A DNA stretch of 64,000 nt from Squalus acanthias (taxonomy: Eukaryota), in assembly GCA_030390025.1 (NCBI GenBank), contig CM059431.1, positions 125,614,001 to 125,678,000 of the forward strand, written 5' to 3'. Each line of letters starts with the position of its first letter. The stretch's first letter is position 1. Positions 2,423-29,848 of the stretch are shown here, piece after piece. The position numbers and the translations under genes are program-made. Under the pieces are notes generated by a model. That model worked only from the letters and a program-made list of their open reading frames with translations, did not search any database and was not told the DNA's origin.

Positions 2423-2914
2423 TAAGAACATAAGAACATAAGAAATAGGAGCAGGAGTAGGCCAATCGGCCCCTCGAGCCTGCTCCGCCATTCAATAAGA
2501 TCATGGCTGATCTGATCCTAACCGCCAATCTACTATCTATCACAGAACCATCTCCTGCATCTAACAGAATTGCACACACGAAATAGGAGCAGAATCAGGC
2601 TACACAGTCCCTGGGCCCGCTCCACTACCCACAGGGCCATGACCGATCCGAACCTAGACTCATGTCCAAATTCCTGCCCGCTCCCCGTAACCCTTAATGC
2701 CCTTTACTTCTAGGAAACTGTCTATTTCTGTTTTAAATTTAATTAATGTTGTAGCTTCTACAGCTTTTTGTGGCAGCATATTCCATGGACCTACCACCCT
2801 CTGAGTGAAGTAGTTCCTCCTCATCTCAGTTTTGAAAGAGCAGCCCCTTATTCTAAGACTATGTCCCCTAGTTCTCGTCTCACCCGTCATCGGGAACATC
2901 CTCCCCGCATCCAC
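2423..2914 (-). mobile_element. CR1 (HER1-like) LINE 3' end, separated from its body (28589-29848) by the provirus
   Basis: DAGRMFP...TRGHSLRI...YFTQRVV; (TTCTTATG)n tail; colinear with the uninterrupted copy at 60405-61987. Confidence 0.95.
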
Positions 2915-4591
2915 TGTAAGGGATTCTGACCCTGCGTGTCTCGCAGCCTGTGAGATTCACGCGGCTCTGTGCAGCCTGTTTGTCAGTGCGGGTCTAGGCC
3001 TTGTTGCCTGTTCTGGTCTCCAGCCAGTCTGGGAACACTAGACACACCTGTGAGTGGTTCGAATCACTCTCCCTTACGGTTCTAGACACTGGACTTAGAT
3101 GCGAGAGCAGTAATGGAGATGAAACTCATGTAGACTCGGTTTGAATGGTACGAAATGGAAAATCTTTATTGCATGATACTTAAGATTATGAAATACATGT
3201 CATAAGCACAGATTAATGACAGTACAATCTTACAAACAGTTATATAGTCGATCTTAGGGAAACGAGGAACGAACGGCACAAAGTAAATAGGGGCACACAT
3301 TACAAATATCCTTAATCCTTAAACCCTCCCCTATCAATATCTATCCTAAACTAGATTCGTAGGATTTCGAGACTCATGCTCACCACTCGTGATAACTCGG
3401 AGAAATTCCGAATAGCTGATCGGATGTTTTTCACCGCAGCACCCACGTGTCGGTCAGGAGATCTCCTGGTCCCACTTGTTTACTTGCTTCTGCTGCTCCG
3501 GCTAGCAGGCTGGACCGTCTGCTGTGATGAAGACCTGTGTTGGTTGGTTTAACAGGTACTCTTCGAGCACAGTTGTCGATATCGTCGATACGATATGTTT
3601 CGTTACAAGTTCGAAGAAGTCTTCCTGGCGAGGAAAACTTGGATAATCGACCTACAGGCGCGGTCGGGATTTACTGACCGTGGCGATGGATATGGTCTTC
3701 CTCTCTTCTCATCTCATCTCATCTCATCTCATCTCATCTCGGGCCTTCGGTTCCGCTGCCAGTTACCAACATAGGTCTTCGTTACGCGACACGAGGTAGA
3801 TCCGAACGGATCAGAAAGTTCAACAGTCTTTTCAGAAGAGGCAACAGACAAGCAGGAGCGAGCCCAACTACGAGTACACAGGAGCAGCCACGAGGTTTAC
3901 GAATCGATCGGATAAGAGCACAGGAGCAGCCACGATGATAAGAGCAGCAAGAGCAAGAGAGAGAATGGACGGTTTGGAGCCTGCAATTATAGTGCAAAAT
4001 CTTCCGTTTCCCGCCCAACTATAATGTCCATTCTTTTGTTTAGGGTTTGGCGCTCAAATGTCTTGTATGGGTGATCTCCGTTCTTAATGGGTTTCGGGGC
4101 TACTCGTAAATGTCTGAGTACCTGTTAATATTTCTCCCATTGTTAAATCGGTCGGTGTTCTCCCTGGAGGGGTTTGGGGCTTCCAAGTGTCCTGTATAAC
4201 TACCTGCTAACGGCTCTCTCATCGTAGAGTCGTTGGGATTTTACATATTAATGTCTTTTGGATGGGCCCTTGATTACTCGGTACAATGGCTTTCCTTTGT
4301 ACCTGGGAGACCGATTTCAGTATCTATGTGTATACTGCAAACCCATAATGTCTCGTGTATTATCTTCACTGTGCTGAATCTTAATCGATCTTGCACAAAT
4401 GTTTATTGGAACGCCATCTTGTCTGCCTGTTGAAAAGTCTAGAATGTTCTGTCACGAGGTGCGGCGGCCATTTTACAGGCTGCTTGTGTCCACTTTAAAC
4501 CTGCCAGCATTCTACTGAAATAAAAGTTGTTTGAACGAAACTCTGTGTTTTCTCCTTATTAATAAAATCGCGATATATTGCGAATTCTACA
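2915..4591 (-). repeat. 3' LTR of the outer provirus (1677 bp)
   Basis: Minus strand reads TGTAGAATTC...CCCTTACA; direct repeat of 26912-28588; preceded by the polypurine tract. Confidence 0.97.
3165..3170 (-). terminator. Putative polyadenylation signal AATAAA in the LTR
   Basis: AATAAAGATTT context is present in all four LTRs and in the diverged solo LTR (58298-58303). Confidence 0.65.
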
Positions 4592-4603
4592 GTCCCTCCT
4601 GTT
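4592..4603 (-). promoter_or_regulatory. Polypurine tract of the outer provirus (inner copy at 12641-12652)
   Basis: AACAGGAGGGAC immediately before the TGT of the 3' LTR. Confidence 0.85.
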
Positions 4604-5042: not shown

Positions 5043-7396
5043 TTACACGGTGCTCTCATCGTGCACGCGCACGTAACGTTCTCGCCACTCTCCCGTGTTT
5101 TCATGCTTGGTGAGGCGTTTGTCTCTTTTACAATGTACGACCAATAGGTACACTACAATGAAAACTTGGCATACGACTAAAATGTGGGAGGCTATTCTGA
5201 TCCATGAAGGTACTTCAATATTGGTGAACAGATTCCACCACGGTGGAACTACTATATCCAGAATGTCTGTTCCTATTTCGACAGTTTTCTGCTCTAATGT
5301 ATAAAAATGTTTCTGTGACACCGCGACGGCTTTCAAAAGCTTGGTGAGGTGTTCAGGGAGAGGGGGAATGAGGTATCCAAAATGCGCGACGAATCGCTGC
5401 AAGTCGGTGAAATTCTCTTTTACTGTGAGATGAACAGTGGATGGTTCAGGGATTGGGATAATTCGCTGTTGTGCTACTTGAACTTCCGCCCTGGGTTTAA
5501 AACAGAAACTGCTGTCACTCACCGGACACCGGCTACGGTTTCCATGCTGGTAGTGTTGCGCTGCAGTGGTAACACAATATGTTCCACCCCCGATGTATGC
5601 TACCTGCGGAGGCACATGATCTTGTGCCATTGCCTCCATGGTGCAATTCATGGACTTGGCGCCAGCCGTTCTGAACCCGCACTGTGGAGTTAAAAAGGCA
5701 TTCAAGTGCTGGGGGCACAGTATTATGTGTGCTCCCCTGCCACGACAACCAGAGAGATCTGTACCTGTCATCGTTTGCTCCCAGCGGATGACGTAAGGTG
5801 GAACCACTGCATAACGAATGTGGGCTCCCCCCTGAATGACACCAATGTTCTCTACCCGATACACCGGGGCGGGCTTTGCTGTGTCGCCCAAAACCGGCAT
5901 ACGTAAAACTATACCCATGATGGTATGGTTTGATCGTCCACAGTCCACGGGGACTGGGTATGCTTCTGAAGCTAGCCTGAGCTGGCACGGGCTTAATGCG
6001 TTCTGAAAAGGGTGGAGCGCCCGCAGGTGTTTGTTACTTATCCAGGACGGAACCAAACCTTGTTTTAAATCCTCCAAATTACTGCGGCCCTCGCCCAGTA
6101 ACCACGCCCCGTAAAGCACGCACACCTCGTTCTGCGCAGCTTGATCGGATGCATTCCGATCTTCCCTAATCAGGGCATTTACCGTCTTTGCATGTTTCTC
6201 CAACTCTGCTATAATTTCCTTTAAATGGAGGGTCATGGCTTGGTCCTCGTGTAGACCCGACCCTACCACTTTATTCTCATCTGTTAGAATGTCCTTTAAT
6301 TGTGTCTTTAAACCATTAATCTGGGTCTGCAGCTCCACACTGTCTAGAGCGTTGACCACAGATGTACCTGTGTTAAAAGCAGTGAACGCATCGTTCACCA
6401 AACCCCTTCTTTGCCTCCCTACTTGATCCAAAACTTCCTGTGGTGCGGTGTACAAACTTGTTTTATCAATTTCCGCGAAATCGAATTCGTAAAATTGTCT
6501 GAACATCTTGGTCAACAGGACCTGGTACAACTGTTCCGTCTTTTTGGGGCACCACACTGGTAACCGCACCTCAGTGAGATTTAAAATCACCGAGGCCACC
6601 GCGTAATGTACCCCCTGAAATAGTATCTGGTCTGTGGGGACCAGTACCAAACCATTCCCGGGTCCCTTACTAGTTTTAGGGCACCCTCCTTCCTCAGCTA
6701 GAACCACCGGAATCGTGGGCGGGGCTTTGCGTGGGCGCGTAATGAGCTCAGTGGCATTTACTGGGATCGGGGAGAATGGGGCTCCGCACCCCCTGGTGCT
6801 CGCATCCCACCTCATCCCCTGTCCGTTATCCTGCCATTGATTAATAAAAAAAATATGGAGATGCCTTTGGGGCAAACGTACTTTGACCCCCACATACATA
6901 CATAAATTCCCTCATCCGGTTCCCACCATTTGTCCCAACAGACTTTCACTTGTCCGTCTGTCCCCGTAATTGTCCAATGGGTATTATTACCCAGTCGTTC
7001 CCACTCGACCGAAGAGTTCCTCATATTTTTGCTCAGCTTCCGCAGCCACCACCATCGGCTCAATGGGACATTCCCACTACAAGTCAAACAAATCCGTTTG
7101 CCGACGGTGACGCTGATCCTGGGTGCGATGATCCTCACTTTGGGGCACAGTAAAGAAGTCTCTTGGTAGGCAAACCCCGATGTGCTGGAATACTCCGTTG
7201 AGTTCGTTCCCAGCCATCCTGGCCACCTTCCCTTGTGGAAATAGGTGCTGGTCTCCTCTGCCTCCCGTCTTCCGGTCCCATCCACCGCGATGGGGGCCGT
7301 GTCCCCGGAACATCCAAACACCACGACATCCTTGGTGCGGCCTCGATAGGCCAATCCACATCCGATTGCCACGAGCAATACTAGAATTCGTTCCAT
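5043..7396 (-). pseudogene. env: env of the outer provirus; +2 frameshift in a homopolymer run near 6846-6853
   Basis: Signal peptide MERILVLLVAIGCGLA, Ig-like segment, furin site RQRR followed by GLVNDAF, heptad repeat, Cys-rich region, C-terminal TM; A8 run versus A6 in the inner copy. Confidence 0.9.
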
Positions 7397-7709
7397 CCTT
7401 CCTTGGTTCCTGTGATCAGATAGAATGAGGTAGCCAGCCTCGCAAGAGTCTCTGGCTTCTGTGAAGGGTGAGCGGGTCCCCTGACCTCGCCTCACGTAAA
7501 CTTCCACGTTTGCTGTATAAACTTTTCACTAAACCTATCTTTAAAACTCCCATCATTTTATCGTTTTCTGTTAAAAACACTACAAACTTAACCTTATTAA
7601 AACTATAAACTTAACCTTGAACTATTAACTTAAAACTTAACCTTGAACTATAAACTTAAAACTTAAAACTTATTACTATACAGTGCCGCCCGTTCTCAGG
7701 GCGGCCCCT

Positions 7710-10700: not shown

Positions 10701-10911
10701 CCAGGAAAAACTCCTTCCCCCCATCTATGGCCCCTAAGGCTGGCGCGGTCTGCAGATCCCTTTTTAACTTCTCGAAGGCTGCTTGGCAGCCCTCGTCCCA
10801 AAGCCACTCCACCCCCTTATGGAGGAGTCGGAGGAGCGGCGCTGCTGTGGCCGCATAATCTTCGATAAAATCCCTGCAGTAACCGGTCAGTCCCAAGAAG
10901 GACCTCACACC
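7710..10911 (-). pseudogene. pol: 3' half of the outer pol (RT thumb, tether, RNase H, integrase, C-terminal extension with a 1-nt indel near 8355)
   Basis: RSFLGLTGYCR, YVDGSS...AQQAEL...SDS...GNRQAD, HHCC, IDYIG/SDQG/VERMN, GPY; interrupted at 10911 by the inner provirus. Confidence 0.95.
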
Positions 10912-12640
10912 TGTAAGGGATTCCTGACCCTGCGTGTCTCGCAGCCTGTGAGATTCACGCGGCTCTGTGCAGCCTGTATGTCAGTGCGGGTCTAGGCCTG
11001 GTTGCCTGTTCTGGTCTCCAGCCAGTCTGGGAACACTAGACACACCTGTGAGTGGTTCGAATCACTCTCCCTTACGGTTCTAGACACTGGACTTAGATGC
11101 GAGAGCAGTAATGGAGATAAAACTCATGTAGACTTGGTTTGAATGGTACGAAATGGAAAATCTTTATTGCATGATACTTAAAATTATGAAATACATGTCA
11201 TAAGCACAGATTAATGACAGTACAATCTTACAAACAGTTATATAGTCGATCTTAGGGAAACGAGGAACGAACGGCACAAAGTAAATAGGGGCACACATTA
11301 CAAATATCCTTAACCCTTAAACCCTCCCCTATCAATATCTATCCTAAACTAGCTTCGTAGGATCTCGAGACTCATGCTCACCACTCGTGATAACTCGGAG
11401 AAATTCCGAATAGCTGATCGGATGTTTTTCACCGCAGCACCCACGTGTCGGTCAGGAGATCTCCTGGTCCCACTTGTTTACTTGCTTCTGCTGCTCCGGC
11501 TAGTAGGCTGGACCGTCTGCTGTGATGAAGATCTCTGTTGGTTGGTTTCACGTACCAGTCAACACTTAAGAGAATAATCTCTCGGTGTCCGTCATGAGGA
11601 TCTGCCCTGATGGGTTTCACAGATCAGTCAATATCACAAAGGAGAATCTTCCGGGGTCCGTTCTTTAAAGTTCAAAGAAGTCTTCCTGGCAAGGAGAAAC
11701 TTGGCTGATCGACCTACAGGCGCGGTCGGGATTTACTGACCGTGGCGATGGATATGGTCTTCCTCTCTTCTCCTCTCATCTCATCTCATCTCATCTCATC
11801 TCGGGCCTTTGGTTCCGCTGCCAGTTACCAACATAGGTCTTCGTTACGCGACACGAGGTAGATCCGAACGGATCAGAAAGTTCAACAGTCTTTTCAGAAG
11901 AGGCAACGGGCAAGCAGAAGCCCAACTACGAGTACACAGGAGCAGCCACGAGGTTACGAATCGACCGGATAAAACACAGGAGCAAGCGAGCGAATGCAAG
12001 AGCAAGAAAGAGAATGGACGGTTTGGAGCCTGCAATTATAGTGCAAAAATCTTCCGTTTCCCGCCCAACTATAATGTCCATTCTTTTTTTTAGGGTTTGG
12101 CGCCCAAATGTCTTGTATGGGTGATCTCCGTTCTTAATGGGTTTCGGGGCTACTCATAAATGTCTGAGTGCCTGTTAATATTTCTCCCATTGTTAAATCG
12201 GTCGGTGTTCTCCCTGGAGGGGTTTGGGGCTTCCAAGTGTCCTGTATAACTACCTACTAACGGCTCTCTCATCGTAGAGTCGTTGGGATTTACATATTAA
12301 TGTCTTTTGGATGGGCCCTTGATTACTCGGTACAATGACTTTCCTTTGTACCTGGGAGACCGATTCCAGTATCTATGTTTATACTGCAAACCCATAATGT
12401 CTCGTGTATTATCTTCACTGTGCTGAATCGTAATCGATCTTGCACAAATGTTTATTGGAACGCCATCTTGTCTGCCTGTTGAAAAGTCTAGAATGTTCTG
12501 TCACGAGGTGCGGCGGCCATTTTACAGGCTGCTTGTGTCCAATTTAAACCTGCCAGCATTCTGCTGAAATAAAAGCTGTTTGAACGAAACTTTGTGTTCT
12601 CTCCTCATTAATCAAATCGCGATATATTGCGAATTCTACA
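10912..12640 (-). repeat. 3' LTR of the inner provirus (1729 bp)
   Basis: TG...CA ends; direct repeat of 22067-23795 with at least two substitutions seen by eye. Confidence 0.97.
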
Positions 12641-13087
12641 GTCCCTCCTGTTGATGCGAATAACTCCGCTTATCGCATCAAAAATCATAGTGGTGAGCAA
12701 TATTATCTCGATTTCTCTCCGAATCCAGTAAATTAATCCCATAATTTTTAACTTAGCTAGGGTCTCTGTGTCGTCCTTATTTCCCAAGAAAATCACATTT
12801 TATATCACCGTAGGCATTATTTGCCCTTAAACTTACACCACTTGTTTTCCTTCCCGGCGTAACCAGGCCGATACCTCTCGTATCACCTGTATATTTGTCT
12901 TTTATTCAGGGAAAGGAAAAAAAAAAACAAAACCCAAAACCAAACAATCAACACCATCACCAAAATAATCAAAACCCCAACTCTTAAAACATGTCGAGTT
13001 CCCAACGTATTTACAATCTCTGAAAATCTTATATGAGTACAAACTTCCGCGGCGCACGCGGCGAGCGGGAGTGACGCCATTTTCCGA

Positions 13088-15435
13088 TTACACGGTGCTC
13101 TCATCGTGCACGCGCACGTAACGTTCTCGCCACTCTCCCGTGTTTTCATGCTTGGTGAGGCGTTTGTCTCTTTTACAATGTATGACCAATAGGTACACTA
13201 CAATAAACACTTGACATACGACTAAAATGTGGGAGGCTATTCTGATCCATGAAGGCACTTCAATATTAGTGAACAGATTCCACCACGGTGGAACTACTAT
13301 GTCCAAAATGTCTGTTCCTATTTCGACAGTTTTCTGCTCTAATGTATAAAAATGTTTCTGTGATACCGCGACGGCTTTCAGAAGTTTGGTTAAGTGTTCA
13401 GGGAGAGGGGGAATGAGGTATCCAAAATGCGCGACAAATCGCTGCAAGTCGGTGAAATTCTCTTTTACTGTGAGATGAACAGTGGATGGTTCAGGGATTG
13501 GGATAATTCGCTGTTGTGCTACTTGAACTTCAGCCCTGGGTTTAAAACAGAAACTGCTGTCACTCACCGGACACCGGCTACGGTTTCCATGCTGGTAGTG
13601 TTGCGCTGCAGTGGTAACACAATATGTTCCACCCCCGATGTATGCTACCTGCGGAGGCACATGATCTTGTGCCATTGCCTCCATGGTGCAATTCATGGAC
13701 TTGGCGCCAGCCGTTCTGAACCCGCACTGTGGTGTTAAAAAGGCATTCAAGTGCTGGGGGCACAGTATTATGTGTGCTCCCCTGCCACGACAACCAGAGA
13801 GATCCGTACCTGTCATCGTTTGCTCCCAGCGGATGACGTAAGGTGGAACCGCTGCATAACGAATGTGGGCTCCCCCCTGAATGACACCAATGTTCTCTAC
13901 CCGATATACCGGGGCGGGCTTTGCTGTGTCGCCCAAAACCGGCATGCGTAATACTATTCCCATAATAGTATGGTTTGATCGTCCGCAGTCCACGGGGACT
14001 GGGTAAGCTTCTGAAGCTAGCCTGAGCTGGCACGGACTTAATGCGTTCTGAAAAGGGTGGAGCGCCCGTAGGTGTTTGTTACTTATCCAGGACGGAACCA
14101 AACCTTGTTTTAAATCCTCCAAATTACTGCGGCCCTCGCCCAGTAACCACGCCCCGTAAAGCACGCACACCTCGTTCTGCGCAGCTTGATCGGATGCATT
14201 CCGATCTTCCCTGATCAGGGCATTTACCGTACGCGCATGTTTCTCCAGCTCTGCTATAATTTCCTTTAAATGGAGAGTCATGGCTTGGTCCTCGTGTAGA
14301 CCTGACCCTACCACTTTATTCTCATCTGTTAGAATGTCTTTTAACTGTGTTTTTAAACCATTAATCTGGGTCTGCAGCTCCACACTGTCTAGAGCGTTGA
14401 CCACAGATGTCCCTGTGTTAAAAGCAGTGAACGCATCGTTCACCAAACCCCTTCTTTGCCTCCCTACTTGATCCAAAACTTCCTGCGGTGCGGTGTACAA
14501 ACTTGTCTTATCAATTTCTGCAAAATCAAACTCGTAAAATTGTCTGAACATCTTGGTCAACAGGACCTGATACAACTGTTCCGTCTTTTTGGGGCACCAC
14601 TCTGGTAACCGTACCTCAGTGAGATTTAAAATCACCGAGGCCACCGCGTAATGTACCCCCTGAAAGAGTATCTGGTCTGTGGGGACCAGTACCAAACCAT
14701 TCCCGGGTCCCTTACTAGTTTTAGGGCACCCTTCTTCCTCAGCTAGAACCACCGGAATCGTGGGCGGGGCTTTGCGTGGGCGCGTAATGAGCTCAGTGGC
14801 ATTTACTGGGATCGGGGAGAATGGGGCTCCGCACCCCCTGGTGCTCGCATCCCACCTCATCCCCTGTCCGTTATCCTGCCATTGATTAATAAAAAATATG
14901 GAGATGCCTTTGGGGCAAACGTACTTTGACCCCCACATACATACATAAATTCCCTCATCCGGTTCCCACCATTTGTCCCAACAGACTTTCACTTGTCCGT
15001 CTGTCCCCGTAATTGTCCGATGGGTATTATTACCCAGTCGTTCCCACTCGACCGAAGAGTTTCTCATAGTTTTGCTCAGCTTTCGCAGCCACCACCATCG
15101 GCTCAATGGGACCTTCCCACTACAAGTCAAACAAATCCGTTTGCCGACGGTGACGCTGATCCTGGGTGCGATGATCCTTTGGGGCACAGTAAAGAAGTCT
15201 CTTGGTAGGCAAACCCCGATGTGCTGGAATACTCCATTGAGTTCGTTCCCAGCCATCCTGGCCACCTTCCCTTGTGGAAATAGGTGCTGGTCCCCTCTGC
15301 CTTCCGTCTTCCGGTCCCATCCACCGCGATGGGGGCCGTGTCCCCGGAACATCCAAACACCACGACATCCTTGGTGTGGCCTCGATAGGCCAATCCACAT
15401 CCGATTGCCACGAGCAATACTAGAATTCGTTCCAT
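13088..15435 (-). pseudogene. env: env of the inner provirus; 4-nt deletion near 15177 disconnects the signal peptide
   Basis: ATG of MERILVLL at 15435; ATCCT----TTGGGG versus ATCCTCACTTTGGGG in the outer copy; the rest is open to the stop at 13088. Confidence 0.9.
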
Positions 15436-15726
15436 CCTTCCTTGGTTCCTGTGATCAGATAGAATGAGGTAGCCAGCCTCGCAAGAGTCTCTGGCTTTTG
15501 TGAAGGGTGAGCGGGTCCCCTGACCTCGCCTCACGTAAACTTCAACGTTTGCTGAATAAACTTCCTCTAAACCTAACCTTAAAAACTCCCATCATTTATC
15601 GTTTTCTGTTAAAAACACTACAAACTTAGCCTTATTAAAACTATAAACTTATTCTTAACCTTAAACTATAAACTTAAAACTTAACCTTGTTACTATACAG
15701 TGCCGCCCGTTCTCAGGGCGGCCCCT

Positions 15727-18700
15727 TTAAATTCTGAGAAGGCTGCTGCGAGCTCTTCCCGACGGTGGGAGGGCGCTGACCCTTCCCTCTGATCTGCCGC
15801 AGCCTGTTGCTGCGCTGACCCTTCCCTCTGATCTGCCGCAGCCTGTTACTGCTGCGATGTGGCCGGTCTGTACCCGGGTTATCTTAACCTGAAGTCTACG
15901 CCTTGGGGCAGTCTGGGGACATGACCACATCCTCCTGGGCTGGGGTTCTCTACTTGACCTACGGGGAGTTGCTATGGGCGGGGGTTCCGTGACGGACGGA
16001 CCGGGTTCCGAGACCTCCAACGGGATGACCTGGGGTTCCATCACAGTCGCCGGCTCCGCCTCCGCTGACTCCGCCTCCCTAACCTCGGGGCTTGCAGTTC
16101 GTGGCTCCGCCCTGCTCGGCCCAGCAAGCGGCCCTTCACTCGTGATCTCTGCCTCCCCTGAGGACTGGACGTTCAAAGCGGGCGGCCACATCTCTGGGAG
16201 CCACATCGGTACTCTCTGTGCTCCTATAGCGGCTGGCCCTGCCTCCTCTAGCTCCTCCCTCCTGTCCTCGGGACCTGCAGCTTGTGTGTCCACCCTGTGT
16301 GGATCTCTACCTATAGGCCCCATTCCCCCCAGACCGTTCCTCAGGAACCACCCGTCATCATCACTATGCTCATCTGCACTATCCTCATCTGACCAGGGTA
16401 CCCTGGGTTCTTCCTCATCTAACCCCCAACTCCAGAAAAACGCTGCATGATCGTCCGGGATGTCCCTTCCCCTGATGCAAGCTGCTATGCCTGCCTGTGT
16501 GCCTTGTGGTCCTACCTGGGGCTGTGCTTTCCCATTGGCGGGATTTACCCCTGTAGTTTTCCCCTGCGCACCCGGCTGGTACAGCTTGCATTGGTTTATG
16601 TGGAACCACTTAGTGCGCCGAGGTACTTTTACGGCGTAAACCATGGGACTCGCCTTGTCTACAATGTTGTAGGGTCCCATATACAGTGGTTCCAGACTCC
16701 CTACTCTGGCGTAGTTTCTGACCATGACCTGGTCTCCTACTTCCCACTCCCGCGTTTTGCGGGGTTCCAGCAATAAGCGATTGCCCTGATGCTGCCTTCC
16801 CATGTTCCCAGCCGCCTGCTCATAAACTTGCTTCAGGCGCTCCAAGAGAGTCTGGGCGAACTTGTCCCTGCTTATCTCTTGGAGCTGACCCTCAGTGAGC
16901 ACCGGGGCTAGCACATGGGTGGGGGTTCGCATGAGCCTGCCGGTCATTACCTCGTGCGGGGAGTACCCCGTACTTATTGACTGACTGGCCCGGACCCCCA
17001 TGAGGACTAAAGGCAGAACTTCCGCCCATTTTTGGGGCGAGTTCCTAGTCTCTTTCCTCAATTTCTCCTTCAGGGTCCGGTTCATACGTTCAACAATCCC
17101 GGATGACTGGGGATTGTGTGCTACGTGCCACTTCCCTTCAATGCCCAAAAGCATGAGGGTGTTCTGCATCACCTGGCCGGTGAAATGACTCCCTTGGTCT
17201 GACTCCACAAAACGGGGGAGTCCCCACCGCGAGAACACTTCCCGGACCAAGATTTTTGCTGTACCCAGTGCCGTAGCTGTTCGACAAGGGAAGGCTTCCA
17301 CCCACTTGGAAAACACATCCACCAGGACGAGGCAGTACTTATAACCTCCCTGGGTGGTGGGCAGGGGTCCTATATAGTCGATCTGTATCGACTGCCATGG
17401 TCCCTCTACCCTTCTTACGTGTCCCATGGGCACCTTCCTTTTCTGGGGGTCTGGGTTGTTTGCAGCGCACACAAGACAGTTTGCACAGAACTCGCGGACT
17501 TGTTCCCTGAGCCCTGGCCACCATCCCGCTTGCTCTACCCGTTGCCAGGTAACCTCGGGCCCGGGGTGCCCTGCCCCTGGTCCCTCGTGAGCCAACTGGA
17601 GGAATTCCCTCCTGTGCTGCTGCGGCACAACCCACTGCTCCTCGCGGAACAGCATGCCTTCCTTAACGGAGAGGGTTGCCGTACTGTACGGACCTTCTAC
17701 CTGCCTCCCCTCAGCAATCGTTTTTAGGACTGCTTTTAGGGCGGGATCCTGGGCTTGGACGGTCTTGAGGTCTAGGGGCAATGCTACCCTGGTGTTCCCG
17801 GTATTCCCGTCCCCGCCTCGGACCGCTGCTATGGGTCCGGTCCTGTAGGGGTTCCAGAAAGTGCCGTCGCGGGCACCCTCCCTGGCTAGCGCATCCGCCT
17901 GCCGGTTGCCCTCCCCACGGGGCTCTGTGGAGGAGTGAGCTTTCACCTTATGGATGAAAATCTCTCCTTCCTCCCCTACTGCTGCTGCTAAGATCTTTTC
18001 CAGCAAGGGCTTCACCGTTAAAGGTCGCCCGTCCGCGGAGGTGTATCCGCGGCGGGACCAAATGGCCAGGTATTCCGTACACGAATTGCAGGTGAACATA
18101 CTGTCCGAGCAAATCGTGTATGGGGTTGGGAAAATGTCTGGGTGGGTCACAACGTACACCACGGCAGACAGCTCAGCCTGCTGCGCGCTCATGGTGCTAG
18201 GGAGCTTGATCGCCAGGGCAAGGTCTGCCGCAGGGTCATAAACTCCACACCCTGTGAGTCGCTCGCCAGCAGACACTGTGCTAGACCCATCAACATAAAT
18301 CTCGCGCCCAGTGGGATGTATCCCGGCCCGTAAACCTATGTTGACGTCCCACACCCCTTCCACCGAACACCGGTGGGCTGTACCGGGGTATACCAAATTG
18401 GCCGCAAGCCTGGGCTCGCAAAGACCTTTTACTCTAAGATCCAACTGGGAGAGAAGAAGGGTCCAACGCGCAATGCGTGCGCTGCTTACGGTCCCGTCTT
18501 TAATCCTCCCATCCAGAAGCATCTTAGTTGGTGTGTGATGTGTGAGGAGAGTGATGGGAGAGAGCCCTGTGAAGATCGCTGATCTTTTCACAGCCCAATG
18601 CGTGGCTAAAAGGTGCCTTTCGCAATTGGAGAAACTTCTCTCCACATCCGTTAATACCCTGGATGAATAGACAACCGGCCTCAGCTTGCCGTGACGCTCT

Positions 18701-20250
18701 TGGAGCAGCACGGCGCTTAAGCTGTCTCCGCTGGCAGCTACCTCCAGGAAAAACTCCTTCCCCCCATCTATGGCCCCTAAGGCTGGCGCGGTCTGCAGAT
18801 CCCTTTTTAACTTCTCGAAGGCTGCTTGGCAGCCCTCGTCCCAAAGCCACTCCACCCCCTTATGGAGGAGTCGGAGGAGCGGCGCCGCTGTGGCCGCATA
18901 ATCTTCGATAAAATCCCTGCAGTAACCGGTCAGTCCCAAGAAGGACCTCACACCCCTTACGTTGTTGGGAATCGGTAATTCTTGCACCGACTCCCTCCTT
19001 GCTTTGTCTATGGCTCTTTCCCCAGCGCGTATGGTCAGTCCCAGGAATTTTACTTCCCGCTGACCGATACGTGCTTTCTTAGGATTTATTTTAAAACCCT
19101 TTCTCGCTAACAGTTCCAATAACTCGTCCAGTAGTGGTCCGTGCTCCTCCCTTGAGTCCGTAAATAGGAGCAAATCATCCACATACTGTACTATCTGATT
19201 GGGCTGACTAAACTCCCTTAAACTTCCTGCCATACACTGATGAAAAATACTGGGGCTATTGTGGAAACCCTGTGGCAGACAGTTCCACGTGTACTGTTGC
19301 CCTTTGAAAGTAAAGGCAAACTTGTACTGGTCCTCTCGCCGCAGCGGGATGGACCAAAAACCGTTCGAGATATCCAGCACCGTGAACGTGGTCGCGGACG
19401 CTGGGATGCTCCCTATTAGGTCAGCAACTGCTGCTACTGTGGGCGCGCAGGCGGGAATGTTACTGTTAAGGACTCTGTAGTCCACCGTGGCTCTCCACGA
19501 ATTATCCGGCTTCCTAACCGGCCATAATGGGGAGTTCACGTGTGTGGCTATCGGCCTTAACACGCCCTGCTGCACCAAGGAAGACATTGCTGTCTCCATA
19601 TCGGGTTCTGCTTCTTTGGGGAAGTTATACTGCTTTTGGGGTCGGGTCATGGGGTCCCCATCTACGCTGACCTCAAACCCGACCACTCTCCCACAATCGT
19701 GCTTGTGGGTTGCAAACGCGTGCATATTATCTGACACGTACGTTTGCATGTCCGTTGGGACATCTGCGACCATAAGCCTGAGGTCGTAGCCTCCGGATGG
19801 CTGTACGGTACACAGGACCCCTGTTTCTTCCTCCCCCGGAATCACTATTACCTCGCCTTTTTCACCTTTAGCCCCCCAGAGACAGTGATTTCTGAGGTCC
19901 ACGAGGATCCCGTGTCCCGCTAGGAGATCGGACCCGAGAATACCTCTTCCACCCCCCTTTTGCCATGCCATCAGTATACACTTCCACTTAAGGCGAAGTG
20001 TTCCTAAACGAATGGATAGCGGAAGGGAAAACGTGCCAGCCTGTTCTTTTCCTGTGAACCCTGCCAACGTGAATGGGACCTTGGTAGATAGCGGCGAGTC
20101 AAAAGGGTCATCTGTATGGATTATGGTGCAAGAAGCTCCCGTGTCCAACAAATAACTGCCCTTCTGTTTCTCTACCTCCATCTCCACCACAGGTCGCCTC
20201 CACGCATCATAGCTAAGCGGACACAGGTAGACGGGCTGTGCTGGTTCTAG
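15727..20250 (-). CDS. pol: Pol polyprotein (PR-RT-tether-RNase H-IN plus a long acidic/Pro-rich tail), in frame with gag after one UGA
   Basis: LLDTGAS/ILGSD protease; LDISNGFW, LPQGFHNSP, YVDD RT; degenerate first RNase H (LEVAASG); second RNase H (YVDGSS); HHCC-DDE-GPY integrase; no internal stops. Confidence 0.96.
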   Translation of the reverse strand, partial: LEPAQPVYLCPLSYDAWRRPVVEMEVEKQKGSYLLDTGASCTIIHTDDPFDSPLSTKVPFTLAGFTGKEQAGTFSLPLSIRLGTLRLKWKCILMAWQKGGGRGILGSDLLAGHGILVDLRNHCLWGAKGEKGEVIVIPGEEETGVLCTVQPSGGYDLRLMVADVPTDMQTYVSDNMHAFATHKHDCGRVVGFEVSVDGDPMTRPQKQYNFPKEAEPDMETAMSSLVQQGVLRPIATHVNSPLWPVRKPDNSWRATVDYRVLNSNIPACAPTVAAVADLIGSIPASATTFTVLDISNGFWSIPLRREDQYKFAFTFKGQQYTWNCLPQGFHNSPSIFHQCMAGSLREFSQPNQIVQYVDDLLLFTDSREEHGPLLDELLELLARKGFKINPKKARIGQREVKFLGLTIRAGERAIDKARRESVQELPIPNNVRGVRSFLGLTGYCRDFIEDYAATAAPLLRLLHKGVEWLWDEGCQAAFEKLKRDLQTAPALGAIDGGKEFFLEVAASGDSLSAVLLQERHGKLRPVVYSSRVLTDVERSFSNCERHLLATHWAVKRSAIFTGLSPITLLTHHTPTKMLLDGRIKDGTVSSARIARWTLLLSQLDLRVKGLCEPRLAANLVYPGTAHRCSVEGVWDVNIGLRAGIHPTGREIYVDGSSTVSAGERLTGCGVYDPAADLALAIKLPSTMSAQQAELSAVVYVVTHPDIFPTPYTICSDSMFTCNSCTEYLAIWSRRGYTSADGRPLTVKPLLEKILAAAVGEEGEIFIHKVKAHSSTEPRGEGNRQADALAREGARDGTFWNPYRTGPIAAVRGGDGNTGNTRVALPLDLKTVQAQDPALKAVLKTIAEGRQVEGPYSTATLSVKEGMLFREEQWVVPQQHRREFLQLAHEGPGAGHPGPEVTWQRVEQAGWWPGLREQVREFCANCLVCAANNPDPQKRKVPMGHVRRVEGPWQSIQIDYIGPLPTTQGGYKYCLVLVDVFSKWVEAFPCRTATALGTAKILVREVFSRWGLPRFVESDQGSHFTGQVMQNTLMLLGIEGKWHVAHNPQSSGIVERMNRTLKEKLRKETRNSPQKWAEVLPLVLMGVRASQSISTGYSPHEVMTGRLMRTPTHVLAPVLTEGQLQEISRDKFAQTLLERLKQVYEQAAGNMGRQHQGNRLLLEPRKTREWEVGDQVMVRNYARVGSLEPLYMGPYNIVDKASPMVYAVKVPRRTKWFHINQCKLYQPGAQGKTTGVNPANGKAQPQVGPQGTQAGIAACIRGRDIPDDHAAFFWSWGLDEEEPRVPWSDEDSADEHSDDDGWFLRNGLGGMGPIGRDPHRVDTQAAGPEDRREELEEAGPAAIGAQRVPMWLPEMWPPALNVQSSGEAEITSEGPLAGPSRAEPRTASPEVREAESAEAEPATVMEPQVIPLEVSEPGPSVTEPPPIATPRRSSREPQPRRMWSCPQTAPRRRLQVKITRVQTGHIAAVTGCGRSEGRVSAATGCGRSEGRVSALPPSGRARSSLLRI

Positions 20251-22062
20251 TCATGGGGCACTATTAGACGGTCCTGCGGCACCTACGGGGCCGGTTGCGA
20301 CCGCCACCTGTCCACGCGCATTCAAGACTAGCTTGCGCATGGCTCCTAACACTGCTTCGAGGTCGTCGGGAGGGGTGGGTGCCTTGGCTTCCTTAGCCGG
20401 GACAGGCGCCTGGGCTCGGACCGCGGGATTTTTATCCTTGGAATCCTTCCAAGGGTTCCTGCAATGCTTGCGCCAGTGCCCTGTCTTCCCACACCCGTAA
20501 CAAGCATTACCTGCCTGTGGGGCGCGATTACCCTCCTGATGCCACTCTCTTTGATACGGGGCTGCGGGTCGTACCTCATGTATTCTTCCCTTAAAGGGAC
20601 GTGTCGTCATACCCCTTATATTACGATAACCTAACGTGAGTCGATTCAAGACCGACTCTTCCGTAAGGTTGAGGTCATTGGGATCAAACCATGCTTTTGC
20701 CTGCTCTCTAACGGCTGGTAAACTGTTGGCTATTATGCACCTAAGCCAATGAGTTAAAGCGGCGCCTTCCACATCTTCGCGCTCGGGCGCACCTAGACAG
20801 CTGCGCTCATATACTGGCCACAGCCTGTCGGCAAAAACCTTCGGGGGTTCTCCCTCCATCTGCACTGTCTGTCCCACTCTAGCAAACGGACCTCCGTCGT
20901 TCGCCCCCAACACTTCTAGGACCTCATTCTTTAATTCCTCATAACTCTTGTTTCCCCTCTTGCTCTCGCCTGAGAGACACTGAAGGACCGAGCTGTCTAA
21001 TGAGAACAGCAGCATTTTTGCTGTCTCCCCATCATCGCAGCCGTTAATGGCTGCGGCTTGCTCAACTTCTCTGAAATGTACGGAAGGGTCGTCTATCTCG
21101 GTCAGCTTCCGTACGTGATTTATCATAGCTCTCAGCTGATGTGAACTGTGAGGCAACACCAGCTGTCCGAGGAGATCCCCCGGTTCTTCCCCACCGTTTC
21201 TGCTTGGGCCCCTTTTAATACCCGTTACTGGATACAGCGATCCCTTTTCTACTTCCTTTTCAATGGGCTCTTTTGTTTCTTCCATTGCTTCCTCCCTAAC
21301 CCAGGTTTCTGAATAGCTGGGTGGCGCGGAGGGCGCAGTGGCTACTACTTCTTCTGCTTTACTTGGTGGGGATTTTCTAAATCTCTCATTTACTAGCGGC
21401 TGGTGCGCCGACGGATTGATAAGGCACACCATGCCGTTCGCATTGTTCACGGCCTTTTTGAGGTTCTCTATCTCCCTTTGGCAGGCGCTATGGTCGGCTC
21501 CCTGAAACTTATCCTCAAGGGCCAACTTATATGCCGACCTAACCCCCATTAAGCTCTCTTCTTGAGTTCTTATCTGGGCAGCTTGGCGGTTACATCTTTC
21601 CTTTAACCTGCTCTCATTCAATTTTGCCTCAGTGACCTGGCACTCGAGATAATCTATCCTTGTTTTAAGGTGACTGGAGACTTCCTGGCTTTCCTGGTGT
21701 AACTCATTTAAATTCTTAATGAGCACCTCCCCTCCAGAAACCTTCTCCTCCATTTCTCCCTCTAAATGACTGATTCGAGCTACTAGCGCTGTAATGGTCT
21801 GGTTTGAAATCTGAACCTGCCTTTTGTAGCACATAAGCCAGACTGCTTTCTCAAGTGTCTTTCTATGTTCTTTACTATCTGTCCACCTTTCAGCTGCCTC
21901 TAGTGGGCTCTTATCCGCTAACAATTCACTTATCCATTTCTTAGTTAGATTAACCTTTCCAAACACATAATCCGCTATCTTTTCCTGCATAACATTTCGT
22001 ACAGTCATTCCAAAATCTAACACACTACCCTCTCGCTGCCAGTGTCCTGCCGCGGTCGCCAT
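20251..22062 (-). CDS. gag: Gag polyprotein, 603 aa (inner provirus)
   Basis: Coiled-coil-like N-half, PSAPPSY late motif, capsid-like helical region, single CCHC knuckle CYGCGKTGHWRKHC; first ATG at 22062. Confidence 0.93.
   Translation of the reverse strand: MATAAGHWQREGSVLDFGMTVRNVMQEKIADYVFGKVNLTKKWISELLADKSPLEAAERWTDSKEHRKTLEKAVWLMCYKRQVQISNQTITALVARISHLEGEMEEKVSGGEVLIKNLNELHQESQEVSSHLKTRIDYLECQVTEAKLNESRLKERCNRQAAQIRTQEESLMGVRSAYKLALEDKFQGADHSACQREIENLKKAVNNANGMVCLINPSAHQPLVNERFRKSPPSKAEEVVATAPSAPPSYSETWVREEAMEETKEPIEKEVEKGSLYPVTGIKRGPSRNGGEEPGDLLGQLVLPHSSHQLRAMINHVRKLTEIDDPSVHFREVEQAAAINGCDDGETAKMLLFSLDSSVLQCLSGESKRGNKSYEELKNEVLEVLGANDGGPFARVGQTVQMEGEPPKVFADRLWPVYERSCLGAPEREDVEGAALTHWLRCIIANSLPAVREQAKAWFDPNDLNLTEESVLNRLTLGYRNIRGMTTRPFKGRIHEVRPAAPYQREWHQEGNRAPQAGNACYGCGKTGHWRKHCRNPWKDSKDKNPAVRAQAPVPAKEAKAPTPPDDLEAVLGAMRKLVLNARGQVAVATGPVGAAGPSNSAP
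22044..22061 (-). promoter_or_regulatory. Primer-binding site of the inner provirus, tRNA-Ser-like
   Basis: TGGCGACCGCGGCAGGAC, 5 nt after the LTR-terminal CA; TGGCG...GCAGGA resembles the complement of vertebrate tRNA-Ser 3' ends (recalled, not searched). Confidence 0.7.
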
Positions 22063-22066
22063 TTTC

Positions 22067-23795
22067 TGTAAGGGATTCCTGACCCTGCGTGTCTCGCAGC
22101 CTGTGAGATTCACGCGGCTCTGTGCAGCCTGTATGTCAGTGCGGGTCTAGGCCTGGTTGCCTGTTCTGGTCTCCAGCCAGTCTGGGAACACTAGACACAC
22201 CTGTGAGTGGTTCGAATCACTCTCCCTTACGGTTCTAGACACTGGACTTAGATGCGAGAGCAGTAATGGAGATAAAACTCATGTAGACTTGGTTTGAATG
22301 GTACGAAATGGAAAATCTTTATTGCATGATACTTAAAATTATGAAATACATGTCATAAGCACAGATTAATGACAGTACAATCTTACAAACAGTTATATAG
22401 TCGATCTTAGGGAAACGAGGAACGAACGGCACAAAGTAAATAGGGGCACACATTACAAATATCCTTAACCCTTAAACCCTCCCCTATCAATATCTATCCT
22501 AAACTAGCTTCGTAGGATCTCGAGACTCATGCTCACCACTCGTGATAACTCGGAGAAATTCCGAATAGCTGATCGGATGTTTTTCACCGCAGCACCCACG
22601 TGTCGGTCAGGAGATCTCCTGGTCCCACTTGTTTACTTGCTTCTGCTGCTCTGGCTAGTAGGCTGGACCGTCTGCTGTGATGAAGATCTCTGTTGGTTGG
22701 TTTCACGTACCAGTCAACACTTAAGAGAATAATCTCTCGGTGTCCGTCATGAGGATCTGCCCTGATGGGTTTCACAGATCAGTCAATATCACAAAGGAGA
22801 ATCTTCCGGGGTCCGTTCTTTAAAGTTCAAAGAAGTCTTCCTGGCAAGGAGAAACTTGGCTGATCGACCTACAGGCGCGGTCGGGATTTACTGACCGTGG
22901 CGATGGATATGGTCTTCCTCTCTTCTCCTCTCATCTCATCTCATCTCATCTCATCTCGGGCCTTTGGTTCCGCTGCCAGTTACCAACATAGGTCTTCGTT
23001 ACGCGACACGAGGTAGATCCGAACGGATCAGAAAGTTCAACAGTCTTTTCAGAAGAGGCAACGGGCAAGCAGAAGCCCAACTACGAGTACACAGGAGCAG
23101 CCACGAGGTTACGAATCGACCGGATAAAACACAGGAGCAAGCGAGCGAATGCAAGAGCAAGAAAGAGAATGGACGGTTTGGAGCCTGCAATTATAGTGCA
23201 AAAATCTTCCGTTTCCCGCCCAACTATAATGTCCATTCTTTTTTTTAGGGTTTGGCGCCCAAATGTCTTGTATGGGTGATCTCCGTTCTTAATGGGTTTC
23301 GGGGCTACTCATAAATGTCTGAGTGCCTGTTAATATTTCTCCCATTGTTAAATCGGTCGGTGTTCTCCCTGGAGGGGTTTGGGGCTTCCAAGTGTCCTGT
23401 ATAACTACCTGCTAACGGCTCTCTCATCGTAGAGTCGTTGGGATTTACATATTAATGTCTTTTGGATGGGCCCTTGATTACTCGGTACAATGACTTTCCT
23501 TTGTACCTGGGAGACCGATTCCAGTATCTATGTTTATACTGCAAACCCATAATGTCTCGTGTATTATCTTCACTGTGCTGAATCGTAATCGATCTTGCAC
23601 AAATGTTTATTGGAACGCCATCTTGTCTGCCTGTTGAAAAGTCTAGAATGTTCTGTCACGAGGTGCGGCGGCCATTTTACAGGCTGCTTGTGTCCAATTT
23701 AAACCTGCCAGCATTCTGCTGAAATAAAAGCTGTTTGAACGAAACTTTGTGTTCTCTCCTCATTAATCAAATCGCGATATATTGCGAATTCTACA
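22067..23795 (-). repeat. 5' LTR of the inner provirus (1729 bp)
   Basis: Direct repeat of 10912-12640, followed by PBS and gag. Confidence 0.97.
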
Positions 23796-25095
23796 CACCC
23801 CTTACGTTGTTGGGAATCGGTAATTCTTGCACCGACTCCCTCCTTGCTTTGTCTATGGCTCTTTCCCCAGCGCGTATGGTCAGTCCCAGGAATTTTACTT
23901 CCCGCTGACCGATACGTGCTTTCTTAGGGTTTATTTTAAAACCCTTTCTCGCTAACAGCTCCAATAACTCGTCCAGTAGTGGTCCGTGCTCCTCCCTTGA
24001 GTCCGTAAATAGGAGCAAATCATCCACATACTGTACTATCTGATTGGGCTGACTAAACTCCTTTAAACTTCCTGCCATACACTGATGAAAAATACTGGGG
24101 CTATTGTGGAAACCCTGTGGCAGACAGTTCCATGTGTACTGTTGTCCTTTGAAAGTAAAGGCAAACTTGTACTGGTCCTCTCGCCGCAGCGGGATGGACC
24201 AAAAACCGTTCGAGATATCCAGCACCGTGAACGTGGTCGCGGACGCTGGGATGCTCCCTATTAGGTCAGCAACTGCTGCTACTGTGGGCGCGCAGGCGGG
24301 AATGTTACTGTTAAGGACTCTGTAGTCCACCGTGGCCCTCCACGAATTATCCGGCTTCCTAACCGGCCATAATGGGGAGTTCACGTGTGTGGCTATTGGC
24401 CTCAACACGCCCTGCTGCACCAGGGAGGACATTGCTGTCTCCATATCGGGTTCTGCTTCTTTGGGGAAGTTATACTGCTTTTGGGGTCGGGTCATGGGGT
24501 CCCCATCTACGCTGACCTCAAACCCGACCACTCTCCCACAATCGTGCTTGTGGGTTGCAAACGCGTGCATATTATCTGACACGTACGTTTGCATGTCCGT
24601 TGGGACATCTGCGACCATAAGCCTGAGGTCGTAGCCTCCGGATGGCTGTACGGTACACAGGACCCCTGTTTCTTCCTCCCCCGGAATCACTACTACCTCG
24701 CCTTTTTCACCTTTAGCCCCCCAGAGACAGTGATTTCTGAGGTCCACGAGGATCCCGTGTCCCGCTAGGAGATCGGACCCGAGAATACCTCTTCCACCCC
24801 CCTTTTGCCATGCCATCAGTATACACTTCCACTTAAGGCGAAGTGTTCCTAAACGAATGGATAGCGGAAGGGAAAACGTGCCAGCCTGTTCTTTTCCTGT
24901 GAACCCTGCTAACGTGAATGGGACCTTGGTAGATAGCGGCGAGTCAAAAGGGTTATCTGTATGGATTATGGTGCAAGAAGCTCCCGTGTCCAACAAATAA
25001 CTACCCTTCTGTTTCTCTACCTCCATCTCCACCACAGGTCGCCTCCACGCATCATAGCTAAGCGGACACAGGTAGACGGGCTGCGCTGGTTCTAG
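23796..25095 (-). pseudogene. pol: 5' half of the outer pol (protease and RT palm), cut by the nested insertion
   Basis: LLDTGAS, YVDD; ends at NNVRGV and continues as RSFLG at 10908. Confidence 0.95.
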
Positions 25096-26907: not shown

Positions 26908-26911
26908 TTTC

Positions 26912-28588: not shown

Positions 28589-29848
28589 CACCCGATCCAA
28601 CCCCTTCACAATCTTATATGTTTCAATAAGATCGCCTCTCATTCTTCTGAACTCCAATGAGTAGAGTCCCAATCTACCCAACCTCTCCTCATATGACCAC
28701 CCCCTCATCCCCGGGATTAACCGAGTGAACCTTTTTTGCACTGCCTCGAGAGCAAGGATGTCTTTCCTTAAGTAAGGACACCAAAACTGTATGCAGTATT
28801 CCAGGTGCGGTCTCACCAATACCTTGTACAACTGAAGCAATACCTCCCTATTTTTATATTCTATCCCCCTAGCAATGAAAGCCAACATTCCATTTGCCTT
28901 CTTAATCACTTGCTGCACCTGCATACTAACCTTTTGAGTTTCGTGCACCAGGACCCCCAGATCCCTTTGCACTTCAGTACTCTCCAGTTTCTTGCCATTA
29001 AGATAATAAATTGCTCTAGGATTTTTCCTGCCAAAGTGCATCACCTCACACTTTCCAGTGTTGTATTCCATCTGCCAAATCTCTGCCCACTTACTTAGCC
29101 TGTCTATGTCCCCTTGCAGGTTTTTTATGTCCTCCTCACTCACTACTTTCCCTCCCATCTTTGTATCATCTGCAAATTTTGATATGTTACACTTGGTCCC
29201 TTCCTCCAAATCGTTAATATAGATTGTGAAGAGTTGGGGACCCAGCACTGACCCCTGTGGAACACCACTAGTTACTGATTGCCAGTCTGAGAATGAACCA
29301 TTTATCCCAACTCTTTGCTTTCTGTTAGATAGCCAATCCTCTATCCATGCCAGAATATTACCCCCAATCCCGTGATTTTTTACCTTAAGCAATAATCTTT
29401 TGTGTGGCACCTTGTCAAATGCCTTTTGGAAGTCTAAATACACTACGTCCACTGGTTCCCCTTTATCCACTCTATATGTTACTTCCTCAAAGAACTCCAG
29501 CAAATTTGTCAAACATGACTTCCCCTTCGTAAAACCATGCTGACTTTGTCCTATTAAATTATGATTATCCAAATGTCCTGTTACTGTTTCCTTAATAATG
29601 GACTCCAAAATTTTACCTACCACAGATGTTAGGCTAACCGGTCTATAGTTACCAGCCTTCTGTCTACTGCCCTTTTTAAATAAGGGTGTTACATTAGCAG
29701 TTTTCCAGTCTGCCGGGACCTTAGCGGAATCCAGGGAGTTTTGAAAAATTATTACCAATGCATCTACAATCCCTACCGCCACTTCCTTCAAGACTCTAGG
29801 ATGTAAGCCATCAGGTCCAGGTGATTTATCCGCCTTGAGTCCCATTAT
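28589..29848 (-). mobile_element. 5'-truncated CR1 (HER1-like) LINE body, RT domain, open frame
   Basis: [46 protein letters not shown]. Confidence 0.97.

Follow-up and report, generated by a model that had tools for sequence, protein, structure and literature searches.

An F-like envelope protein of a Squalus acanthias endogenous retrovirus with an N-terminal, probably immunoglobulin-like head

The stretch of DNA analyzed here (the window) comprises 64,000 nucleotides of the Squalus acanthias genome (assembly GCA_030390025.1, contig CM059431.1, positions 125,614,001 to 125,678,000) and contains two endogenous retrovirus (ERV) proviruses, both on the minus strand and each with an envelope (env) gene. 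When the repeats were analyzed and aligned in pairs, we found that the two elements are not in tandem; the inner provirus (10911-23817) is nested within the pol gene of the outer one, which picks up again at ~23791, beyond the inner element. Both insertions look very young because the two long terminal repeats (LTRs) of each provirus are almost identical (Table 1). The inner element reads, in order, LTR, a gag-like frame of 631 codons, pol of 1507 codons, env and second LTR. It has a single env frame, and from pol to the 3' LTR no second glycoprotein gene or other candidate for attachment is present. The product of this gene appears to be a lokiretrovirus-type Env, with a body that resembles the viral fusion protein F in its modeled fold and an N-terminal head that probably belongs to the immunoglobulin superfamily (IgSF).

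Both env genes in the window are broken, at different sites flanking the Ig-like segment of the head, and the segment itself is open in both. Residues are numbered after P0007, an env frame from a different locus that is naturally open (836 codons, 783 from the leader Met). The split of the outer copy into two frames is a length difference in a run of T relative to open copies, just past residue 183, and the stop-free translation of 6848-7396 (minus strand) gives a hydrophobic leader plus 183 residues holding ISVTVGKRICLTC, RWWWLRK, WTITGTDGQVKV and EPDEGIYVCMWG in that order. Between residues 85 and 88 the inner copy is 4 bases shorter than open copies, which leaves its leader out of frame, and an open frame of 788 codons (13088-15454, minus strand) contains its Ig-like segment. 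In a 15-row alignment, the two segments of the window are 97% and 98% identical (98% for the inner one) to the open reference copy. These open translations bear out the original prediction, read from the DNA letters alone, that a segment with Ig hallmarks occurs in both env copies (at 6885-7135 in the outer one, or Env residues ~88-171 by codon count), and the Pro-rich linker expected past the segment is also present. Its placement right after the signal peptide does not hold: a conserved segment of 66 residues (18-83) intervenes, with a near-invariant G-R-W-P-G-W-L-G-S-N-S-T stretch and two Cys.

Breaks like that of the inner copy were also seen outside the window. Among ten loci fetched with the inner-copy Env, eight (one of them the inner copy itself) have the first ~86 residues out of frame with the remainder, and the other two switch frame near residue 100. 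This suggests that copies with a defective env leader have multiplied as a sub-family, in a sample biased by a query that itself bore the break. The genome is hugely rich in this type of Env, with 15,690 first-look candidates and 88-100% identity at all 57 of the 57 places scored, and in it we also found several copies of further families that bear the N-terminal addition and have open full-length env frames.

Table 1. Positions of proviral features in the window and of Env parts along the protein
Feature	Window positions	Strand	Env residues	Basis or remark
Outer provirus 3' LTR	2914-4596	minus		1681/1683 bases same as 26911-28593
Outer env, leader Met to stop	5043-7396	minus		two frames: 6812-7525 and 5043-6911
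Outer Ig-like segment	6848-7147	minus	84-183	open; frame breaks just downstream
Conserved segment, outer copy	7148-7345	minus	18-83	no family match, no confident model
Inner provirus 3' LTR	10911-12661	minus		1742/1751 aligned bases same as 22066-23817
Inner env	13088-15435	minus		leader + residues 1-85 (15181-15435) in different frame from remainder
Inner F-like body	13091-14728	minus	~238 to end	AlphaFold2, Foldseek, VIA-align; coordinates by codon count
Inner Ig-like segment	14870-15178	minus	88-190	open, in frame with whole downstream Env
Conserved segment, inner copy	15181-15384	minus	18-83	no family match, no confident model
Inner pol: protease, reverse transcriptase, tether (RNase H-like), RNase H, integrase	15727-20250	minus		Pfam
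Inner putative gag	20251-22146	minus		open frame directly upstream of pol, one stop between
Inner provirus 5' LTR	22066-23817	minus		repeat families and LTR pair alignment
Outer provirus 5' LTR	26911-28593	minus		repeat analysis and LTR pair alignment
Leader			1-17	
Ig-like segment			84-186	
Linker			187-243	N-glycosylation sequon and Pro-rich stretch
F-like body			from ~244	
RQRR, predicted cleavage site			325-328	then hydrophobic Gly-led peptide GLVNDAFTAF...
Long helix A			332-444	AlphaFold2
Beta-rich head			~477-645	AlphaFold2
Second helix (helix B)			680-711	AlphaFold2
C-terminal helix including hydrophobic anchor			730-779	AlphaFold2

A full-length AlphaFold2 model of the Env, built from a 49-row alignment, has a mean predicted local distance difference test (pLDDT) score of 60.5, rising to 85-92 over residues 240-310 and 80-94 over residues 420-650. 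By searching the PDB with this model in Foldseek, we obtained 243 matches at E <= 0.001, with the F protein of human parainfluenza virus 3 (hPIV3) at the top (1.6e-11), followed by those of respiratory syncytial virus (RSV), Langya henipavirus and Newcastle disease virus (NDV). VIA-align gave Z >= 8 for 224 of 1000 chains, and each of the 50 rows displayed is an F protein of a paramyxovirus or a pneumovirus; the pairs include 1ztm_B with the best Z of 12.9 (root-mean-square deviation (rmsd) 18.2 over 329 residues) and 8dmj_A with Z 12.3 (rmsd 5.3 over 291). Most of the top VIA-align rows match model residues 243/245 to ~651 with F residues 25-38 to ~431-463. The order of parts is that of a class I fusion protein of this kind, with a basic site where cleavage is predicted, a fusion peptide, two heptad helices around a large head, and an anchor. 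At the level of sequence, none of the 40 clade members scanned matched Pfam PF00523 (Fusion_gly) at E <= 10, and one of the 40 matched Baculo_F (E 0.0011). When PDB sequences were searched with the clade profile, no F protein came up, only weak matches to the heptad repeat 2 (HR2)-anchor region of a coronavirus spike (0.02) and to a HERV-K chain (0.044), and phmmer with the inner Env returned nothing from the PDB sequences at E <= 1. Since neither PF00523 nor the clade profile gave an F match, we call the body F-like by fold: as modeled, it is a paramyxovirus/pneumovirus-F-like class I fusion protein, not a member of the F sequence family. This supports the assumption in the original prediction that the rest of the Env is F-like. 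Because the F match begins at Env residue 244, corresponding to the mature F N-terminus, residues 18-243 (~225 residues) are, going by the model, an add-on that precedes an entire F ectodomain. F proteins have an Ig-like domain II of their own, which we considered as an identity for the Ig-like segment and ruled out, since the F alignment opens at ~244, past the segment.

Within the add-on, the segment carries the residues expected of an Ig V/I-type domain. Cys106 (B strand) and Cys167 (F strand) are 61 residues apart, inside the 55-75 range of IgSF spacing, and Trp117, which lines up with the C-strand Trp of the receptor CRTAM, falls within the 10-15-residue spacing sought for that position. 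The F-strand motif D-x-G-x-Y-x-C is present as D161-E-G-I-Y-V-C167, and relatives retain G-x-Y-x-C with D, E or Q ahead of it. Cys103, Cys106 and Trp117 are invariant in all 15 alignment rows; Cys167 is replaced by Tyr at one locus (L023), and one fragment stops short of the position. A B-F disulfide between Cys106 and Cys167 is putative. When the segment profile was searched against the PDB, the CRTAM Ig-V domain scored best, both with 7 sequences (E 0.0096/0.018) and with 15 (E 0.0078/0.015), in a match that covers profile positions 8-99 of 107 and keeps the B-strand Cys, the C-strand Trp and D-E-G-x-Y-x-C in register, as the hallmark residues named in the original prediction would have it. 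IgSF adhesion molecules make up seven of the nine PDB rows of the 7-sequence profile. Ig_3 is the sole Pfam Ig family matched, in 3 of the 40 Env-clade members scanned (best E 0.0085; 0.0085-0.58 over all Pfam scans), and window positions 6860-7150 (minus strand) alone give Ig_3 at E 0.02 (15.8 bits). By protein language-model features, Ig families are the nearest clusters (score 0.91) and the ten best Pfam-bearing matches fall in one family or clan, a concentration that one third of shuffled proteins likewise reach; a 53%-identical relative also comes out as Ig, more weakly (0.83-0.87). Two independent AlphaFold2 runs placed seven strands alike (~87-97, 101-107, 115-121, 132-135, 141-146, 149-155 and 164-169), and Foldseek with the weak N-terminal model returned rows whose titles and chain labels denote, almost exclusively, antibody variable domains or nanobodies.

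A number of results weigh against this reading. The Ig_3 scores of 11-17 bits fall short of the cut-off of 30. AlphaFold2 on residues 1-235 (11 sequences) gave a mean pLDDT of 37, the segment itself reached ~50-66 in its best blocks in both runs, and the G strand is absent from the models. Foldseek with the N-terminal model found no match at E <= 0.001 (all had E >= 0.034), its best VIA-align Z was 5.2, and an unbiased VIA-align scan of 48,161 chains peaked at Z 5.0, which is noise level by the tool's own note, with phage-tail beta-sandwiches ranking beside titin, obscurin and antibody domains. When hhalign compared the segment with 30 antigen-receptor V segments of the host, combined into a profile, the probability was 1%, and the 15-sequence profile has IgSF proteins in just 3 of its 10 PDB rows. 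The segment also varies less than the sequence on either side of it, an uncommon trait in a retroviral receptor-binding domain. For the Ig domain as originally proposed, the hallmark pattern and its register with CRTAM therefore stand, whereas the beta-sandwich and the B-F disulfide remain putative at these low pLDDT values and weak fold matches; the HMMER and AlphaFold checks proposed with it yielded Ig_3 alone, below cut-off, and seven strands at low pLDDT.

These shortcomings could be explained if the segment were a beta-rich domain of some other fold, with the Cys/Trp/DxGxYxC pattern a coincidence of a viral glycoprotein rich in Cys and Trp. All Ig sequence matches are marginal (E 0.008-0.5), the structure models are of low confidence with phage-tail sandwiches level with Ig domains in the unbiased scan, and the extra Cys (103, 153, 175) and the Trp cluster are not canonical for Ig domains. 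However, the profile search against the PDB, Pfam and the language-model features all indicate Ig families and nothing else, the CRTAM alignment covers the whole domain with three hallmark positions in register, and the number and spacing of the strands in both models suit an Ig sandwich. We regard another fold as unlikely. The segment probably encodes an Ig-like (V/I-type) domain of ~100 residues (Env 84-186), and we hold with good confidence that it has an Ig fold.

The pattern has been kept in relatives at other loci and in other species. Add-on and segment are both found in the skate Rhinoraja longicauda (segment 73-74% identical), the sawshark Pristiophorus japonicus (65%), three further fragments (48-60%) and at least two more ERV families in the same genome (54-65%), and across this range of 48-74% identity the hallmark Cys, Trp and G-x-Y-x-C are retained. 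Between families, amino-acid identity is 59-77% in the Ig segment, 52-61% in residues 18-83 and 45-55% in the linker. Ratios of nonsynonymous to synonymous divergence (dN/dS, Nei-Gojobori) were computable for 4 of 7 between-family pairs, with dS saturated in 3, and amount to 0.08-0.16 for the Ig segment, 0.11-0.18 for residues 18-83, 0.26-0.61 for the linker, and, for the head of the body, 0.07-0.08 in three pairs with family 1 and 0.34 in the F2/F2b pair. The Ig segment has been under purifying selection while the viruses diversified and is more conserved than its flanks. Given the hallmark positions kept across relatives and the dN/dS of 0.08-0.16, the pattern is more than chance, and we ruled out a chance pattern in non-coding DNA.

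We looked for the wider clade by exhaustive phmmer with the whole Env against 1.84 billion representative sequences, which gave 50 matches at E <= 0.001. Organisms were available for 18 of the 23 matches looked up, covering six sharks, one skate, the coelacanth and three frogs. In distant full-length members, the alignment to the Env opens only at residue ~221-237, and what precedes the body differs among them. P0041 has no add-on, its mature chain beginning at the F-like body; P0016 and P0027 have a Cys-rich N-terminal module; and P0017 (bamboo shark), P0023 and P0052 (both frogs) and P0038 have 140-180 N-terminal residues with Ig-like motifs. Against the PDB, the P0017 module matched antibody heavy-chain variable (VH) and butyrophilin domains over 70 rows (E 0.0039 at best), and 34 of the 35 rows for the P0023 module were antibody VH (E 0.0036 at best). 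The rows for the P0038 module were weak and for the most part IgSF (E >= 0.17), with Pfam V-set at 0.045, and the P0052 module had no Ig match. UniRef already carries P0017 under the automatic name 'Ig-like domain-containing protein'. The N-terminal module is thus not peculiar to the present element, as other Envs of the clade have V-like modules in the same place. The modules themselves are not demonstrably homologous, because hhalign of the segment profile with the N-termini of P0017, P0023, P0038 and P0052 gave a probability below 1% for each and no detectable similarity; a MAFFT alignment of these four modules was poor, and they were kept out of the segment alignment. Judging by these comparisons, the site before the F body holds a variable, often V-like, module, which is compatible both with one ancient, diverged domain and with repeated exchange.

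Some of the shark gene models join Env pieces to host genes, namely to a Niban 1-like protein (P0005), a cadherin-related 5-like protein (P0006), a zinc-finger protein (P0013) and fbxo15 (P0044). These fusions are probably annotation chimeras over ERV insertions.

The original prediction called the domain captured. That it was taken recently from a host IgSF gene would fit its Cys-Trp-Cys core, of the Ig V/I type typical of animal cell-surface proteins, as well as its best solved match to CRTAM, a vertebrate adhesion or immune receptor, and the differing V-like modules of different lineages could reflect repeated captures. Against this, neither the phmmer nor the profile search gave a stand-alone host IgSF protein: none was among the phmmer matches inspected or looked up by name, the eight matches that cover the add-on are N-terminal pieces of Env (three of them within gene models that run into unrelated sequence), and a search of longer proteins with the segment profile found six Env fragments and no donor. 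Similarity at the level seen with CRTAM (E ~0.01) does not identify a source. Moreover, the domain occurs in at least three ERV families and in skate and sawshark at 48-74% identity, with saturated synonymous divergence between families. Recent capture is therefore improbable in our view. As a broad idea 'captured' is still reasonable, its one argument being the generally cellular nature of Ig domains. The domain being so widespread and synonymous divergence saturated, any capture long predates the proviruses of the window.

As for what the domain does, paramyxovirus F usually needs a separate attachment protein for binding and triggering, and pneumovirus F can attach to cells on its own. Here there is a single env frame, nothing is missing from the F body, and only the add-on is without a counterpart in F. 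The simplest reading is that the add-on, with the Ig-like domain as its folded core, supplies cell binding. The leader would first be removed from the Env precursor, which would then be cut at RQRR, ahead of the hydrophobic fusion peptide; the N-terminal fragment (add-on plus F2-like part) would stay joined to the F1-like fragment, cleavage and subunit linkage both being proposed by analogy with F. The Ig-like domain would then serve in cis as the cell-binding module, in place of the separate attachment protein of paramyxoviruses, and the add-on may also set off the F-like machine in cis. We give even odds to receptor binding by the Ig-like domain; immunomodulation, the other role offered in the original prediction, is likewise putative.

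Another possibility is that the domain is Ig-like but acts as a cap or clamp for the prefusion F-like trimer, a glycan-bearing shield or an immune-modulating decoy, with binding located elsewhere (for example in residues 18-83 or, as with pneumovirus F, in the F-like head). Purifying selection and conservation above that of the flanks suit a structural role better than an arms-race interface, and the conserved segment 18-83 could be an alternative binding site. On the other hand, the module is swapped for unrelated ones or is absent in sister lineages, as expected of a host-interaction cassette and not of a clamp, and env is the only frame between pol and the 3' LTR that is a candidate for attachment. 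We see such a non-receptor role as possible and clearly the less probable of the two. Taken jointly, an F-like body and an Ig-like domain forming the core of a ~225-residue N-terminal add-on remain the best explanation, one that we favor with somewhat more than even confidence. We would only tentatively extend it to a general scheme, in which the F-type retroviral Envs of sharks, rays, coelacanth and frogs bear an exchangeable N-terminal cassette, often V-like and of the IgSF, swapped among them or re-acquired from host receptors of the CRTAM/nectin type; such cassettes would act in cis as the attachment protein, with entry by mimicking one adhesion partner.

The remaining parts of the inner element bear on its classification. 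Its putative gag is without a Pfam match, and the reverse transcriptase of its pol matches Ty3, gammaretroviral and foamy-virus enzymes about equally among PDB sequences (E 1e-58 to 1e-72). The LTR-gag-pol-env-LTR layout with tether and RNase H (a dual RNase H), as in lokiretroviruses, is present, and the Env is akin by fold to the F of Mononegavirales and not to a canonical retroviral Env, which is a further lokiretrovirus trait. We therefore describe the element as a lokiretrovirus-like ERV of cartilaginous fish, an assignment based on layout and Env fold.

Two further observations concern pol-type frames in the window. Residues ~1225-1507 of the inner pol (P0008; window ~15727-16575, minus strand) form an extension of ~280 residues past the SH3-like part of the integrase, with no family match; it is rich in Pro, Glu and Ser and has a short direct repeat of ~19 residues at its end. 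A 450-codon open frame with a reverse transcriptase domain (Pfam RVT_1, E 1.9e-31) lies at 28556-29908 (minus strand), heading outward from the outer 5' LTR and overlapping its final bases as aligned, and probably belongs to another retroelement adjoining the nest.

An Ig domain at the front of an F-type retroviral Env had been put forward as an architecture not described before. A term search found no 'immunoglobulin' in four articles (PMC7947760, PMC9040795, PMC13524379 and PMC13709493), and literature searches on Ig-like features of ERV envelopes, extended by paramyxovirus F, shark or AlphaFold, found nothing relevant. The novelty is lessened, however, by the V-like modules elsewhere in the clade and by the automatic UniRef name of one of them. 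Should both the Ig fold and a receptor be borne out, attachment function would here be fused to an F-type fusion machine and not separate from it. The open point addressed is by what means a retrovirus could rely on an F-type fusion protein as its only envelope protein, and an add-on before a complete F body is a concrete, testable answer to it, with the clade offering a natural series of 'F plus different heads'. The findings also extend this type of Env to cartilaginous fishes, where it is very abundant, and are relevant to paramyxovirus entry and to the origins of retroviruses.

The nearest known system is the lokiretrovirus Env, for which a signal peptide, basic cleavage site, fusion peptide, coiled coil, membrane anchor and resemblance to the F of Mononegavirales are given by Wang and Han 2020 (PMC7947760). 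The two share the LTR-gag-pol-env layout, the dual RNase H, the order of Env parts and the likeness to F. There, that likeness was obtained through Pfam PF00523, whereas here it comes by fold only, and the Env model published there names no N-terminal domain, whereas the present Env has the add-on. The hosts in that abstract include lobe-finned fishes and amphibians, and the present clade likewise extends to coelacanth and frogs; cartilaginous fishes are missing from the abstract's host list and the words 'cartilaginous' and 'shark' are absent from the main text, and the supplement counts shark genomes among those screened.

Compared to the F proteins of paramyxoviruses and pneumoviruses (hPIV3 1ztm, RSV, Langya, NDV, Nipah), Env residues 244-651 superpose from the mature F N-terminus through the head at 7-15% sequence identity, and the parts follow in the same order: short N-terminal subunit, basic site, fusion peptide, helix A, beta-rich head, helix B and anchor. 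F begins right past its signal peptide, whereas the present Env has ~225 additional residues there, and F is a gene of RNA viruses, whereas this is the single env frame of a retroelement. The Ig-like segment has its best profile matches in the N-terminal Ig-V domain of CRTAM (4h5s, 3rbg) and in nectin-like and IgLON/DIP adhesion domains, with Cys, Trp and DEGxYxC in register, but at E 0.008-0.02 only and with three extra Cys and a WWW/WDKWW cluster of Trp in the viral domain. Viruses are known to use Ig-type domains in other settings, as in the Ig-like receptor-binding cores of the gammaretroviral surface subunit (SU) and the IgSF genes acquired by pox-, herpes- and adenoviruses. In these cases an Ig-type sandwich meets host molecules, as it would in the present domain; they are part of a canonical SU or separate genes, whereas here the probable Ig-like module precedes an F-type fusion protein in one and the same chain.

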